From NCBI GenBank assembly GCA_951406725.2, contig OX597815.1:202182001-202246000 (forward strand): 64,000 bases of DNA. Direction: 5' to 3'. This document shows, one piece after another, positions 19,090 to 52,848 of this stretch (its first letter is position 1; each line of letters begins with the position of its first letter). The position numbers and the translations under genes were made by a program. Below the pieces are notes generated by a model. The model did not search any database and was not told where the DNA came from. It worked only from the letters and a program-made list of their open reading frames with translations. Origin of the DNA: Octopus vulgaris (Eukaryota).

Positions 19090-19285
19090 ACCGCGTGTAT
19101 ACCGTTGGCGATTTTTTTCCTCTGTCTTCTCTTCTCTGGATCTTTCCTTCTCCTATGTTTCCGAAAAAGAGCTCCGCTCGAAACTTTAAACCCTCCTTCT
19201 TTCCTTCTTTCCTGAGCGTCCAATAATACTATATTAGTTCCACGTCCACGCGTTGTGTTTTTTGTGCTTTCATGTTTGGATTAAC
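19090..19285 (+). mobile_element. Short Penelope-pLTR-like element with a mutated minimal hammerhead motif (family H1)
   Basis: Near-identical to 48556-48749. Motif 19157-19191 is GTTT-CCGAAAA-A-GAGC-TCC-GCTC-GAAACTTT-AAAC. Ends in (TA)n. Confidence 0.72.
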
Positions 19286-21545
19286 TATATATATATATAT
19301 ATATATATATATATATATATATATATATATATATGGAAGTTCCTTTCTGCTAGTCCATGTCTAACGCTTCTGAAATGGTGATTTCTTTACGACCCTGTAA
19401 TTTTTCGGATGACGAAAAAGACCGATGAATATTCACCAACTATATTATATTATATATGTAAGCAAAATTGAGGTAAGTGAAATAACTCGAAGTTGCTTAG
19501 AGATATGTATTAGAGCAAAAATCATATCAGAGGTTACTCCCACTTATTTCTCTTAGTTTATAAATGTTTCTAATCATTATGTAAATTGCATGAGCAATAA
19601 CTGGTTTTTACTCCGTTTTGTATAAGGCTTTGTCCCTTGGCTGCTGGATGTATAGCCTTTTCGTTCGGAATATGGCTATTAAGCAGCAAACGCTTATTAA
19701 TGATTGTCTTCGTATATTTAGACGTTAACCTTCTCCTTTTACTTAGTAGCATGCCCGGTGGGGAGAGCCACGTGTTTATACCTCTTCTCTAATGTACCTA
19801 CTTATAAGTGCCATTTCCTAATGATGAAATTTTGATATTTCCTGTAGATTCACTAATAATTTGAATAAATCAAGAATTTTCGTGGTAGAGCTTTTGTCAT
19901 AACGGTATATATACATATCTAGAGATAGATATATAGACAGATAAACACACACGCACACACACATCCATATATATATACATGCCGTGTGTGTGTGTGTGTG
20001 TGTGTGTGTGTGTGTGGAGAGAGTGATATATATACAGAGCGGCAATGAGAGAAATGTATATTTGGCGTGTCAGAGATATTTAATGTTTAAGCAATTCTCT
20101 TCTTCATGCCAGCTGTTAAACTTTCAAGTGTAATAAATTCTCGATTTATTCGACAATTTACGTCAGAGTTACACTTCCATTGATGCTCAGATAATGATAC
20201 AAGGTCGTACGCACACAGTTATATGTAGTTGTCTTTTATACTGTTAGAAAAACATATTAGTCATTAGCCATCGCATAAAAGTATTTTACTCTCACCGCAT
20301 GTTTACGTTCATTATTCTAATACACGACTTATTCAATATACTTTCTAACATTTATCAGTGAAAGTGTACAATGCTTCATATTTATCACTAATAAATATTC
20401 AACTGTGTATAGTTTTTTTTCTTTCTAGTACTTTTATTACACTATTTTTATGAGGAGACCATAATACATATTTTATTTTGCATCATAGTAAACGACTGCT
20501 TTTAATAGGTAATAGATATATAGCAATAATTTCATGCCTATATACTGATTGTCGTTCCTTAAAATATATGTTGTTTTGTATGTAACGCACAAGTTTAATA
20601 TAGAATAAATAAATTCAACTTTTTATTTCTGTATGACATAAAAACACTTATTTTCTTCTTGGTTGGTCAATGAGGTAATAGTGTTTGTATATATGAACAA
20701 ATATATTTGTTATTCGTTTGTGTACTCATGCATTACTGTACTTTTGTAACCTGCTTGTCCCCGTATGTTAATAAAGAGCTGTGTGATTTTACTAATTTGC
20801 AGATAATTTTTCGAAGTCAATTAGAAACTCCTAATAGGATTTTCATTCAGTTTATATTTCATCTTTCCTCTTCACATAGGTATCTTTGTGTCTTTCTTAA
20901 AATGTTATACCCTGTATTGTATTTTATTCAGTTTCTCTTGTAAACAGATACCAGTTAATCAACATACCAGTGACTGTGATGCCAGATGTATTGATTTATA
21001 TAATTTTTTTAAAGCCATAATTTTACGAAAAATCAAAACCAAGAATAACGGATCGGAAAAGTATTTCATCGAATACAGAATGCTGGACAGTAGAAATGGG
21101 ATTCAGAAAATATAATTTGCAACAACATCTCGCATGGTAAAGACTTGTATTTAATTCAGCCTTATAATTTCAACAGTGCTCACTTGCAACATAAATAAAT
21201 GGAATACATGTATTCCGTTTTCTACGTCCTCAGTCTAAAATTTTACCTCGGCCACATTGTTGCTTCCCAATTTCATTTCAAGAAATTATGACCATTCATT
21301 CGATTATCAACAAATTTCTATCAAGGATTGTTGATAAACTTCTATAACTGATAAAGAAAAGAGAAACGTTCACTTAAATGCTCCGCTTGAGCACACACTC
21401 AAGATATAGGAAAATATATTTTTATCGTCACTAGTCATAATTTTATCTATAATTTTTACTTTCCGAATCGTCCGTCTGAACATTTTCGGTTTTGTATGTG
21501 TATGATTCTGCATATTGTATATGTGCGTGCATATATGTATACATG

Positions 21546-21850
21546 TGGAGGCACAATGGCCCAGTGGTTAGGGAAGCGGACTCGCGGTCGTAGGATCGCG
21601 GTTTCGTTTCGATTCTCAGACCGGGCGATGTGTGTGCTTATTGAGCGAAAACACCTAAAAGTTCCACGAGGCTCCGGCACGGGGTGGTGATCCCTGCTGT
21701 ACTCTTTCACCACTCTTTCTCTCTTTCTTCTGTTGGCCTGCTCGCTTAGCCAGCGGGGTGGCGTCGTTCGAAGGCTAAAACAATGCGAACGCATTGTGAC
21801 CAGCGATGTGTAGCAACAACTGATGGTCTGGTCTGTCACGTGATCACGTG
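21546..21850 (+). mobile_element. tRNA-derived SINE family C (tail type 2), full length
   Basis: A box TGGCCCAGTGG and B-box-like GTTTCGATTC. 13-bp TSD ATATGTATACATG at 21533-21545 and 21851-21863. Confidence 0.92.
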
Positions 21851-22924
21851 ATATGTATACATGCGCACACACGCACACATAAACACTCACACACACATAT
21901 ATATAAGGGTAAAAGTTTGATAATGAACGACCATTTGATATTGTATACACGCATTCACAGATATCACTACGCAACTCAGTAGTGTACTCAGTAGTGTATT
22001 TCATCTCCAATCTATTTTATAGATACTTTCATAGACATCTGATATCACAATTTTCGTAACATCAAGTTTTTATCGTTATCCAGAAAGAAGGTTCTTTTTC
22101 AATTACTAAATACACACGCATTAGCTGCAAGGATTTGTGGATTTATACTCGTGTGCTTTGTGATCCACTGACCCCAACGCTACCTCCTCCCAATTATTAT
22201 TTCAGATTCTCTCCAAAGTTTATAAAATTTTATGATATCAAGAATATACAATTCTCACAGATAAGATTATGGTTAGACAGAATTTCAAGGACTCTTAGTC
22301 CAATGGTAGGACGCCACTCATTTCTACAAGAGATGAATGTTCGACTCCTACAGGAAGCCTTCGATTTCTTCTATCCGAAAGAATTTTTCAATCTAATATG
22401 CATGATATATGGCATTATTTAGAGCTTTATGTATGGTTCTGGTTTCAATGTTCCCAAAAAGAATATACGTATATATGCCTGTGTATGGATCTGTTAGTAA
22501 GAGTGTGAAAGAGAACGAGACAGACATACCAATAAACGGATACCATATTCCTATGATTTTTTAACAAAAATATCAGTATTAAATAAGATAATGATTGTAA
22601 ATAATAATATATAGCAGAAACAAATGGAAGAAACACCTGATGCTAGGAATATCACAAAATATATGCGAATGTATGTGAGCGCGTGTATAATTTTACTAAT
22701 TACATAGATTTAAGTATATTTTATAACGTACAATTCCATAGTTATATTGTATTTTAGTCATATATATATATATATATATATATATATATATATATATTAA
22801 ACTATCATGTGCTTTTAACATTAGTATATGGCGTAACTACAATAAAAAGGATATTTATGTTCTAGATATATTTTCAACTCTATTTGCGCTATCATATAAT
22901 TTTCCCGTCATGTATATGAGTTAT

Positions 22925-50753: not shown

Positions 50754-50924
50754 GGTAACAGTTATAACAGCGCAAGTGGCTACAACCCCACCGCCACAAC
50801 CACCATCAGTATGACTTCTTCCGTCTGAGCCTCAGAAGAACCCTTTGCACTCTTTCTAGAGGATAACGCCTCTAAATTAGATAAGTTTCAGAAAATAGAG
50901 GGAAGAAGAGCTGAATCAATACTT

Positions 50925-51455
50925 TTTGCGTTCTGAGTTCAAAATCCGCTGGGGTTGACTTTGCACTGGAGTCGATGTAATAAACTAGTCCTCTCCCCAT
51001 AAAATTTCAGGCCTTGCGCCTTTAGTAGACAGTGCCATTATTAAATTATATTGTTGCTGTTGTTGTTTCTATCATTGGTGTTGCTCTTATTGATCATATT
51101 CGAATCAAGTTATTAAGAGATAATGTAATGCCTGGATTATGCTAACAACATTTCTCCTCATTAAGAACTTATCCAACCGCTTCTTAAAACTATTTCCGTT
51201 TGTTGGGTTTTGCTTTCAATAGTAAGTCATTAACATTGAGAAAATCTGTTTATCAAATTAAACAGTGTTTCCGGATGCATCTAGCATACTCAAATACATG
51301 TTAATTATACATATGACATTGCGGCATTTCGTCTGTCGTCATGTTCTGAGTTCAAGTTCTGCCGAAGTCGATAAAATACTAGTTGGACACTAAATTTGAT
51401 GTAATCGACTTAACACTCCACTGAATTAGTTGGCCTTGAGGCAAAATTTGAAACA
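50925..51455 (+). mobile_element. Two decayed SINE family B fragments (about 50925-51030 and 51320-51455)
   Basis: GTTCTGAGTTCAA..GTCGATGTAAT..GGCCTTG motifs. Confidence 0.7.
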
Positions 51456-52498
51456 AGCTATGTATTTGACACACATAAATGACACGATATATATTATCTT
51501 CCGCGAAATTTGATAAGGATGTGCTCTCGCTTCTAAATTTGTCCGATGGGTCAAAGCTTTTGAAATTTCTTACAATATTTAGACAGTAAACTATTCATTT
51601 CTTTAGTAAATGTTAGACATTAGCACGTATTGTTTCTAAATTATGTCTTAAATATAAAATGAAGAGAATTTCAGGGCACATTGCAAATACAATCTATCTC
51701 ACGACAGACAGTATTTCGCGCATTTGTGTTTTATTGAGAGATGTAATAGCATGCTAACAACGTACATGTTACATTAGAACATGTAAAACGTACATTAGAA
51801 AAATCCGAAGTATTATTTAAAAGATTCAATAGAATCATGAGTAAAAAGTTAAGACCACTCATGATGGTATTAAGATATCAAGCCATCAAGTTGTTTAGAC
51901 TGTTTCATATCATAGATAAGGGCGTTTTCCACATAATTAATTCTCTAAATACGCATATATTTTGCTTACTGTACATGTTGGAATACTGTGCACACAGGCC
52001 AATTGAAAGATAAATAAATTGTAACAATTCTCTTATTTGAAATATGTAAAATTCATCCTATTTACATCGAAATGTTAATACATATGTAAGTAAACAAGAT
52101 AAGATGCCACACACACACACACACACAGAGAGAGAGAGAAAGAGACAGTGGTAGAGAAACTGGATAACGTTGCTGTTTCTGAAACGCCATAATATCTCGC
52201 ATCTGTATTACTAACTCTGATGGGAATCATCAATATAGATATACATATTCAAAAACAAGGTAACAGCGGACGAAAATATAATGTCAGATAAACTCAAATA
52301 TATCAATGGAAATAAAGATAGAATAAAGTTATAAAACATCCAACTAGATTCTTTGGATAAGGAACATATGTCAGAATGTATTTTACTATTTACTATGTCA
52401 AGGACAGCAAAACTCCAAACTCTATTCCCAGAATATCACAGTATTATCCGTCACAACTATATTTTCAAAATTATATACACGGCATCATTATTATTCTG

Positions 52499-52848
52499 GT
52501 TGTATACTGTCAATTTAACGGGACAGTAGGGGATTACACCACCGCTGTTTAGCCCTAGGAAGCATCGACGCTTCCTGATGGCTTCGACACATTTTTTCTT
52601 GTGATCTTATATATTTACGAAGGGGAGACAAACACCCCCAGCAGCCAGGCCTGCATCTAGAGACACGCATGGTTCAGGATCTTTGTCCATCATCGGTCTA
52701 GAGTAGCAGAAGCCCGCCAGCCGCAGATATCTGTCCCGACTTCGTAAATATATATATCTAATATTCAGTGAAGTTTATTCACTGATTACCAAAATCAGAA
52801 ATATTAAATTTCTGAATATCTCATAGAGATATGTACGGTGGTGGGGCG
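52499..52848 (-). mobile_element. About 350-bp retrozyme/Penelope-pLTR-like monomer (family H3) with 12-bp TSD
   Basis: ATTATTATTCTG at 52487-52498 and 52849-52860; homology to 43993-44451; hammerhead-like motif at 52656-52702. Confidence 0.82.
52656..52702 (-). ncRNA. Type I hammerhead-ribozyme-like motif
   Basis: Minus strand: TCTAGA-CCGATGA-T-GGA-CAAAGA-TCC-T-GAA-CCATGCGTGT-C-TCTAGA. Stem II covaries with the 44-kb copy (GGA/TCC versus GGG/CCC). Confidence 0.65.

Follow-up and report, generated by a model that had tools for sequence, protein, structure and literature searches.

The window analysed here, a 64,000-nucleotide stretch of Octopus vulgaris (contig OX597815.1, positions 202,182,001 to 202,246,000), is AT-rich animal DNA (35% GC), rich in microsatellites and carrying remnants of short interspersed elements (SINEs), long interspersed elements (LINEs) and mariner. 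It contains several short repeats with hammerhead ribozyme motifs whose catalytic cores depart from the canonical CUGANGA, grouped here as H1, H2 and H3 (Table 1). In H1, the replacement of U by C at core position 4 (U4C) is not decay but a dimorphism at the level of the family, a large minority of which stays canonical.

Hammerhead motifs and their relationships

The six hammerhead cores listed in the initial annotation are all present in the window, and stems I, II and III are as it described, including the truncation of stem II in the 46588 copy, which is cut by a (TA)n run. The coordinates under which the motifs were listed are the first base of stem I for four of them (cores starting at 48628+, 19161+, 28681+ and 44248+), the core position itself for 46588+, and the low end of a minus-strand motif for 52656, where the core starts at 52696. 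The six cores are indeed variant; the statement that no canonical core occurs does not extend to the whole window, which also has the CUGAAGA core of H0 and the U3-A8 pair of H4.

The motifs exceed chance. A strict hammerhead descriptor with at most one core mismatch gave two matches in the window and none in 15 local shuffles; at up to two core mismatches, one match appeared in one of the 15 shuffles. In a looser scan the three best matches were H3 (10.2), the previously unlisted canonical motif H0 (9.7) and H1 (9.2), the best of 20 shuffles reaching 8.2, and both H2 motifs were absent among the 20 matches of that scan. Rfam returned 116 matches for the window at E≤5, none of them a hammerhead, and no hammerhead when H1, H0/H3 and the truncated H2 copy at 44243 (H2a) were searched; its models are not built for minimal forms.

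The motifs had been regarded as independent families, but H1 and H3 are homologous, with local alignment scores of 102 and 92 against shuffle maxima of 47 and 52. Scores between H2 and H1/H3 (13-20) lie inside the null, indicating that they are unrelated, and H0 shows no relation to H1/H3. The six motifs form two lineages rather than three, H1 with H3 on one side and H2 on the other. As had been noted, U4C occurs in two unrelated families, H1 and H2, and the replacement of A6 by U (A6U) in both window copies of H3 (28681 and 46588). The probability that a change shared by both copies of H2 (U4C) or of H3 (A6U) arose independently by chance is about 0.001-0.005 per site. Three of the five copies with a complete motif carry further private lesions: G8A in the copies with cores at 19161 and 44248, and A15.1C in that at 52696. 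A G8A repeat copy has been reported as inactive (PMC8490949).

Table 1. Hammerhead-bearing elements and associated features in the window.
Feature	Position	Strand	Description
H1 element, copy a	48547..48750	+	about 200 bp, ends in (TA)n; 93% identical (187/201 aligned bases) to 19081-19286
H1 hammerhead	48624..48658	+	minimal type-I; core CCGACGA (U4C), extra A, stem II GAGC/GCUC, stem III ACGU, predicted cleavage after 48654
H1 element, copy b	19081..19286	+	between (TA)n runs; hammerhead 19157-19191 with U4C, private G8A and broken stem III
H3 element	28602..28812	+	sister of H1, between microsatellites; hammerhead 28676-28713, core CUGUCGA (A6U)
H3 fragment	46558..46600	+	core CUGUGGA at 46588, stem II cut by (TA)n; 80% over 46 nt to H3
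H2 monomer	52499..52848	-	350 nt, 43.7% GC, predicted to be strongly self-paired, retrozyme-like
H2 putative full type-I hammerhead	52639..52717	-	UAC bulge, 6-bp helix I, core CCGAUGA (U4C), U-U at stem II base, CAAAGA loop, near-palindromic stem III, A15.1C
12-bp direct repeat, 5' copy	52849..52860	-	candidate target duplication or terminal redundancy
12-bp direct repeat, 3' copy	52487..52498	-	partner of 52849..52860
H2 5'-truncated copy	44243..44451	+	hammerhead 44243-44287, U4C and G8A; ends in (CT)n(TA)n
Inverted 5'-truncated H2 copy	43993..44238	-	monomer nt 166-350, then nt 1-50
H0	28455..28515	+	canonical CUGAAGA core at 28460; family unrelated to H3, 220 nt upstream of H3
H4	58930..59172	.	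back-to-back inverted pair, UUGAAAA (U3-A8) core in both arms (59060-, 59073+)

Core position 4 of H1 in public sequencing runs

Contigs from four of 24 public runs were aligned to 48470-48762 at 80% likeness, with differences listed from 10%. The aligned contigs numbered 17,756 in X1 (organism A), 16,204 in X4 (organism B), 484 in X13 (organism E) and 4,836 in X19 (organism A; guessed to be RNA and therefore counted as a fourth run, not as evidence of expression). In the three DNA runs, depth at the H1 core, set against the flank, was about 42,000x (X1), 47,000x (X4) and 2,000x (X13), which is not to be read as a copy number.

At position 4 (48629), T accounted for 33.5% (X1), 25.7% (X4), 38.5% (X13) and 24.8% (X19) of the depth. 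Since neither A nor G reached 10% in any of the four runs, C is the commonest letter in all of them, with at least 41-55% of the depth. Changes stayed below 10% in all four runs at C3, G5, A6, N7, G8, A9, A13, A14, A15.1, stem II and stem III. G12 was replaced by A in 11.0% (X1), 4.1% (X4), 1.0% (X13) and 1.8% (X19) of the depth, while position 17 showed C (3-35%) and A (1-11%) with no G listed. As no change was listed at 48633 (G8) in the four runs, the G8A of the 19157 copy is copy-level decay. In X13, A (83%) and T (68%) replace the G and C of the outer stem-I pair, the two changes being unphased.

The possibility that T4 reflects CpG methylation decay was considered and rejected. Among the nine CpGs of the element, C>T reaches 10% at position 4 alone, and no G>A was listed for the partner base; T4 is therefore an allele. 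A canonical CUGANGA consensus, with the window copies as mere mutants, was looked for in these runs and is not what H1 has. The proposal that the substitutions are family-level states rather than random decay thus holds for U4C in H1 and not for its G8A, and in H2 and H3 it rests on two of two window copies each.

Searches elsewhere gave no further copies. A pattern scan of metagenome contigs gave 13 matches, all judged to be chance and none homologous to the window, and scans of viral contigs and prokaryote genomes gave none. Searches for chance translations of the elements produced no candidates for an H1 peptide, none scored among 11 longer proteins for H2, and one unrelated repeat protein for H3.

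H1 and H3: sister elements with minimal hammerheads

H1 and H3 are elements of about 200 bp that end in (TA)n and are mostly flanked by (TA)n as well. An extra A after position 9, followed by GAGC/GCUC with its G10.1-C11.1 pair, is found in the motifs at 48624, 19157 and 28676; helix I is 4-5 bp long and stem III is the loop-less palindrome ACGU. The marks given for minimal hammerheads of Penelope elements are an extra base after A9, G10.1-C11.1, a palindromic stem III and a short helix I (PMC4209133), and by these structural marks H1 and H3 would be Penelope-type minimal hammerheads. They also share with the published examples an occurrence as dispersed single copies and in nearby inverted arrangements, and the closest row in the published alignment is that of the Neptune element of the coral Acropora digitifera (PMC4209133). 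They differ in the core: where Penelope minimal hammerheads have CUGANGA or U3-A8, H1 has U4 as a minority letter and neither window copy of H3 has A6. With C4 in the majority of H1 and U6 in both copies of H3, they stand against 56 published representatives of which 53 have CUGANGA, three have U3 and none has C4 or U6, a zero that is partly built in because the published set was found with canonical-core descriptors (PMC4209133). With A6 retained in H1 and U4 in H3, a canonical common ancestor (CUGACGA) would be the most parsimonious.

Whole H1 and H3 elements fold no better than shuffles (z of 0.2 and -0.66), and so they do not appear to be rod-like as H2 is. No head-to-tail joint of H1 was seen among 15 of the 18 joints in contigs aligned to it, and the 5' loose ends of these contigs are heterogeneous.

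Two other repeats adjoin the H1 copies. A 180-bp direct duplication (47773-47952 and 48376-48555, 98%) ends at the 5' boundary of copy a, and a 24-nt SINE-head-like unit is repeated three times between (TA)n runs at 18880-19045, just upstream of copy b.

H2: a retrozyme-like element

H2 was initially taken for a minimal hammerhead, but its U-U mismatch at the opening of stem II, 6-bp helix I and UAC bulge point to a full type-I hammerhead, carried by what appears to be a retrozyme-like, circularly permuted element. The unit lies within the retrozyme range of size and composition (150-450 bp non-coding, GC <50%) and is predicted to be extensively self-paired: as a circle its minimum free energy (MFE) is -135.7 kcal/mol, compared with a shuffle mean of -80.6, and none of 60 shuffles did as well. 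The minus strand of 52605-52760 is predicted to fold as a long rod ending in the type-I hammerhead (z -7.1, 0/200 shuffles). In a narrow search of 52639..52717, the Rfam model HH9 aligned over positions 1-77 of 77, though weakly (14.6 bits, E 0.4, gathering threshold 52), and the alignment keeps the UAC bulge, the 6-bp helix I and loop II in register.

The inverted copy matches the monomer at 86% over 191 nt and then at 94% over 50 nt, the passage from nt 350 to nt 1 forming a single head-to-tail junction at 44051-44042; no full tandem dimer of H2 occurs in the window. The 12-bp repeat that flanks the monomer, which could be either a target-site duplication (longer than 4 bp in retrozymes) or a terminal redundancy, is found in the window only these two times. 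Between the copies, the third pair of stem II is swapped between G-C and A-U. Both window copies with an intact motif have C4 together with G8A or A15.1C, so that the canonical core is not kept. H2 has two alternative 3' ends, and these, together with the inverted 5'-truncated partner, resemble Penelope insertions (PMC8557442).

H2 is like the non-LTR (long terminal repeat) retrozymes of metazoans in unit length (350-390 bp in mussel), GC below 50%, the predicted self-paired circle, a long flanking repeat and a putative type-I hammerhead, and its U-U at the base of helix II recurs in the axolotl HHR_Amex2 (PMC7229834). It is unlike them in the C4 core of both intact-motif copies and in its 10-nt near-palindromic stem III, and it is known here from DNA alone. 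Solo retrozyme monomers and a Penelope origin of retrozymes have been described (Li et al. 2026, bioRxiv 10.64898/2026.07.22.740005); no report of a cephalopod retrozyme surfaced in the literature searched.

Other hammerheads and repeats in the window

H0 has an ATG at the start of its stem II, and a (CA)n(TA)n run lies between it and H3. The H4 motif score taken alone, 6.1, is within the shuffle range; stem II of H4 is similar to the rows for Drosophila Penelope in the published alignment (PMC4209133 supplement).

Several further repeats were recorded. A SINE pair at 35779-36156 and 44927-45306 is 95% identical, with a head that is tRNA-like by eye; on its antisense strand a chance-level, hammerhead-like reading (45289-) was rejected, since its score of 5.0 is no higher than shuffles reach and the sequence folds into a competing hairpin. 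The SINE-like family at 50349-50757, a copy whose 3' part is duplicated in tandem (184 bp, 96%), has relatives at 62766-62990, 2191-2324, 13323-13445 and 61430-61580. A further SINE-like family of about 370 bp with an internal microsatellite has at least five copies (40578-40991, 53093-53491, 54810-55189, 56505-56881 and 31270-31605). The 3' ends of non-LTR retrotransposon open reading frames (ORFs) lie at 27010-28218 (+), 10963-11472 (-), 13682-14074 (-) and 62311-62616 (-), each beside a long (ATT)n; they presumably carry a restriction-like endonuclease motif, and 27535-28215 has a weak zf-RVT match. A mariner transposase remnant is found at 8949-9257 (-) (HTH_48, E 4.5e-5).

Core variants in known hammerheads

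H1, H2 and H3 are core variants of known Penelope hammerheads and retrozymes. A natural U4C variant of a viroid hammerhead is much slower in vitro yet sufficient for viroid infectivity, a phage hammerhead with A6C cleaves at under 0.1 per min, and U3-A8 is a natural core variant described as slower but functional (PMC3088659). U4C and U3-A8 in the window are the same changes as in those variants; at A6 the position is the same, the change being A6C there and A6U here, and A6U was found neither in the available portion of that paper (PMC3088659) nor in a literature search. The variants of Perreault et al. are rare single cases, whereas C4 here is the main allele of the very abundant H1; in the same survey, from 2011, core-mutant matches in repeats were discarded as 'cryptic mutants' (PMC3088659). 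A published search pattern is written CYGANGA (PMC13481778).

The initial annotation offered a variant ribozyme chemistry as one explanation of the altered cores. It finds no support here: G5, G8, G12, A13 and A14 are retained, and U4C, as a published natural variant that is slower but viable (PMC3088659), calls for no new chemistry.

No report of a hammerhead family with majority C4 or with U6, in retroelements or in octopus, was found in the literature searched, most subscription papers being outside its reach. A 2017 paper by Lunse, Weinberg and Breaker reportedly deals, to go by its title, with dimeric hammerhead variants associated with Penelope, and may already tabulate these core variants.

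Proposed mechanism and alternatives

We favour, with a probability of about 0.55, the explanation that these are non-coding repeats likely copied in trans by Penelope-like enzymes, and that U4C is a family-level allele, predicted to be slow by ordinary hammerhead chemistry, which weakens the ribozyme but is tolerated at high copy number. From a canonical CUGACGA ancestor, source copies with U4C (H1) and A6U (H3) would have arisen and been amplified despite the weakened ribozyme, presumably because reverse transcription and insertion can proceed without fast self-cleavage. H1 and H3 would be pseudo-LTR-type elements whose hammerheads are predicted to work only as dimers, and H2 a retrozyme-type unit of about 360 nt, likely copied from circular or tandem RNA. 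All three are probably non-autonomous and mobilised by Penelope, while most genomic copies would be single, often with further private lesions, and likely inert. Hallmarks of Penelope in the window are the back-to-back inverted 5'-truncated copies (H2, H4), the microsatellite flanks and the two alternative 3' ends of H2 (compare PMC8557442). Also in favour of this explanation are the excess of C4 over U4 in four runs from three organisms against the low variation at most other core positions, the stem-I shift and the motif depth in X13, the likeness to the coral Neptune row, the infectivity of viroids with U4C (PMC3088659), the undisturbed insertion of hammerhead catalytic mutants of Penelope in vitro (PMC11167929) and the proliferation of Naiads in the absence of canonical hammerheads (PMC8557442).

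Several observations weigh against this explanation. Variable places are not significantly fewer in the H1 motif than in the rest of the element (2/26 and 23/170, Fisher p 0.54), and the allele shares are depth-weighted over contigs and so biased toward the C-bearing reference letter; X1 is possibly the window's own source. MFE cofolding gave the dimeric hammerhead pairing for one of the six motifs (H2a), and for neither H1 nor H3. No Penelope reverse transcriptase (RT) or GIY-YIG reading frame could be linked to the elements, Pfam finding neither in 30 of the 90 stop-to-stop ORFs of the window, picked to skip microsatellite frames. Moreover, C4 in H1 and U6 in H3 may each abolish catalysis altogether, since CUGA-turn mutants are poorly active (PMC9901934) and minimal hammerheads are without the tertiary contacts said to offset core changes.

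In a rather unlikely alternative, the motifs with C4 and U6 have no catalytic activity left, and their fold persists solely as a handle for the RT/endonuclease protein of Penelope. Single changes in the CUGA turn had low activity in a mutational scan (PMC9901934); in the Anolis Penelope element, insertion in vitro is normal with catalytic mutants of the hammerhead, and cleavage by this ribozyme depends on the protein of the element (PMC11167929). The sister families H1 and H3 have each lost a different core position, and the shift in stem I of H1 appears compensatory. A pure binding handle, however, need not keep the chemistry-bearing G8 and G12 and a non-G at position 17, as H1 does across three organisms, and the RT start of the Anolis element has been mapped to an AC-rich stem-loop distinct from the hammerhead (PMC11167929). 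Neutral hitchhiking, in which core mutations were carried along by chance in prolific source copies, the hammerhead serves no function in these families and the stems are alike only through recent shared ancestry, is unlikely too. It would agree with the absence of significant excess conservation in the H1 motif, with the likeness of most aligned contigs in X1, X4 and X19 (over 90%) and with the suggestion that hammerheads may be no more than parasites of Penelope-like elements (PMC8557442). It fits less well with the paired changes in stem I of H1 and stem II of H2, with C4 having arisen or persisted in two unrelated lineages, and with the motif being the best-kept part of H1 in the most diverged organism (E), where depth over the motif bins of X13 exceeds that over the 5' part of the element 41-fold and that over the 3' part 72-fold; this peak is inflated by the 80% alignment filter, which favours motif conservation, a further point against the explanation we favour.

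A different chemistry or re-wired core that makes C4 and U6 fully active is very improbable. Although C4 is the leading allele of a family with very high depth and turns up again in an unrelated element, and neither C4 nor U6 is seen in the published Penelope set, that zero is partly owed to the descriptors used (PMC4209133); no second-site core change accompanies C4 in H1, and a comprehensive double-mutant scan found no rescue of the CUGA turn except by a C3-G8 swap (PMC9901934). It is scarcely credible that the window copies are simply decayed members of canonical families. The private lesions in three of the five complete motifs and the fact that H2 and H3 are known from window copies only would allow it, but it is refuted for H1 by the run tallies, and both copies of H2, like both of H3, share the same change. 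A more speculative extension, which we consider doubtful, is that selection in several Penelope-dependent families, a retrozyme among them, favoured hammerheads of lowered or abolished activity (U4C twice independently, A6U once) and preserved the fold as an RT-binding signal. If so, RNA that stays uncut or circular would serve as the better template, and ribozyme surveys that look for canonical cores would overlook a large class of such elements.

Implications

The role of hammerheads in Penelope-like elements is stated to be unclear (PMC8557442), and their catalytic mutants insert normally in vitro (PMC11167929). H1 is a natural experiment: one very abundant family with canonical U4 and variant C4 alleles in at least three organisms. 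A comparison of the two alleles in cleavage, age and copy number would test whether cleavage matters for spread. Surveys that require CUGANGA miss the main allele of some families, and H2 would add a variant-core retrozyme from a cephalopod. That C4 outnumbers U4 in H1 suggests that elements likely copied by Penelope can spread with a weakened cutter.

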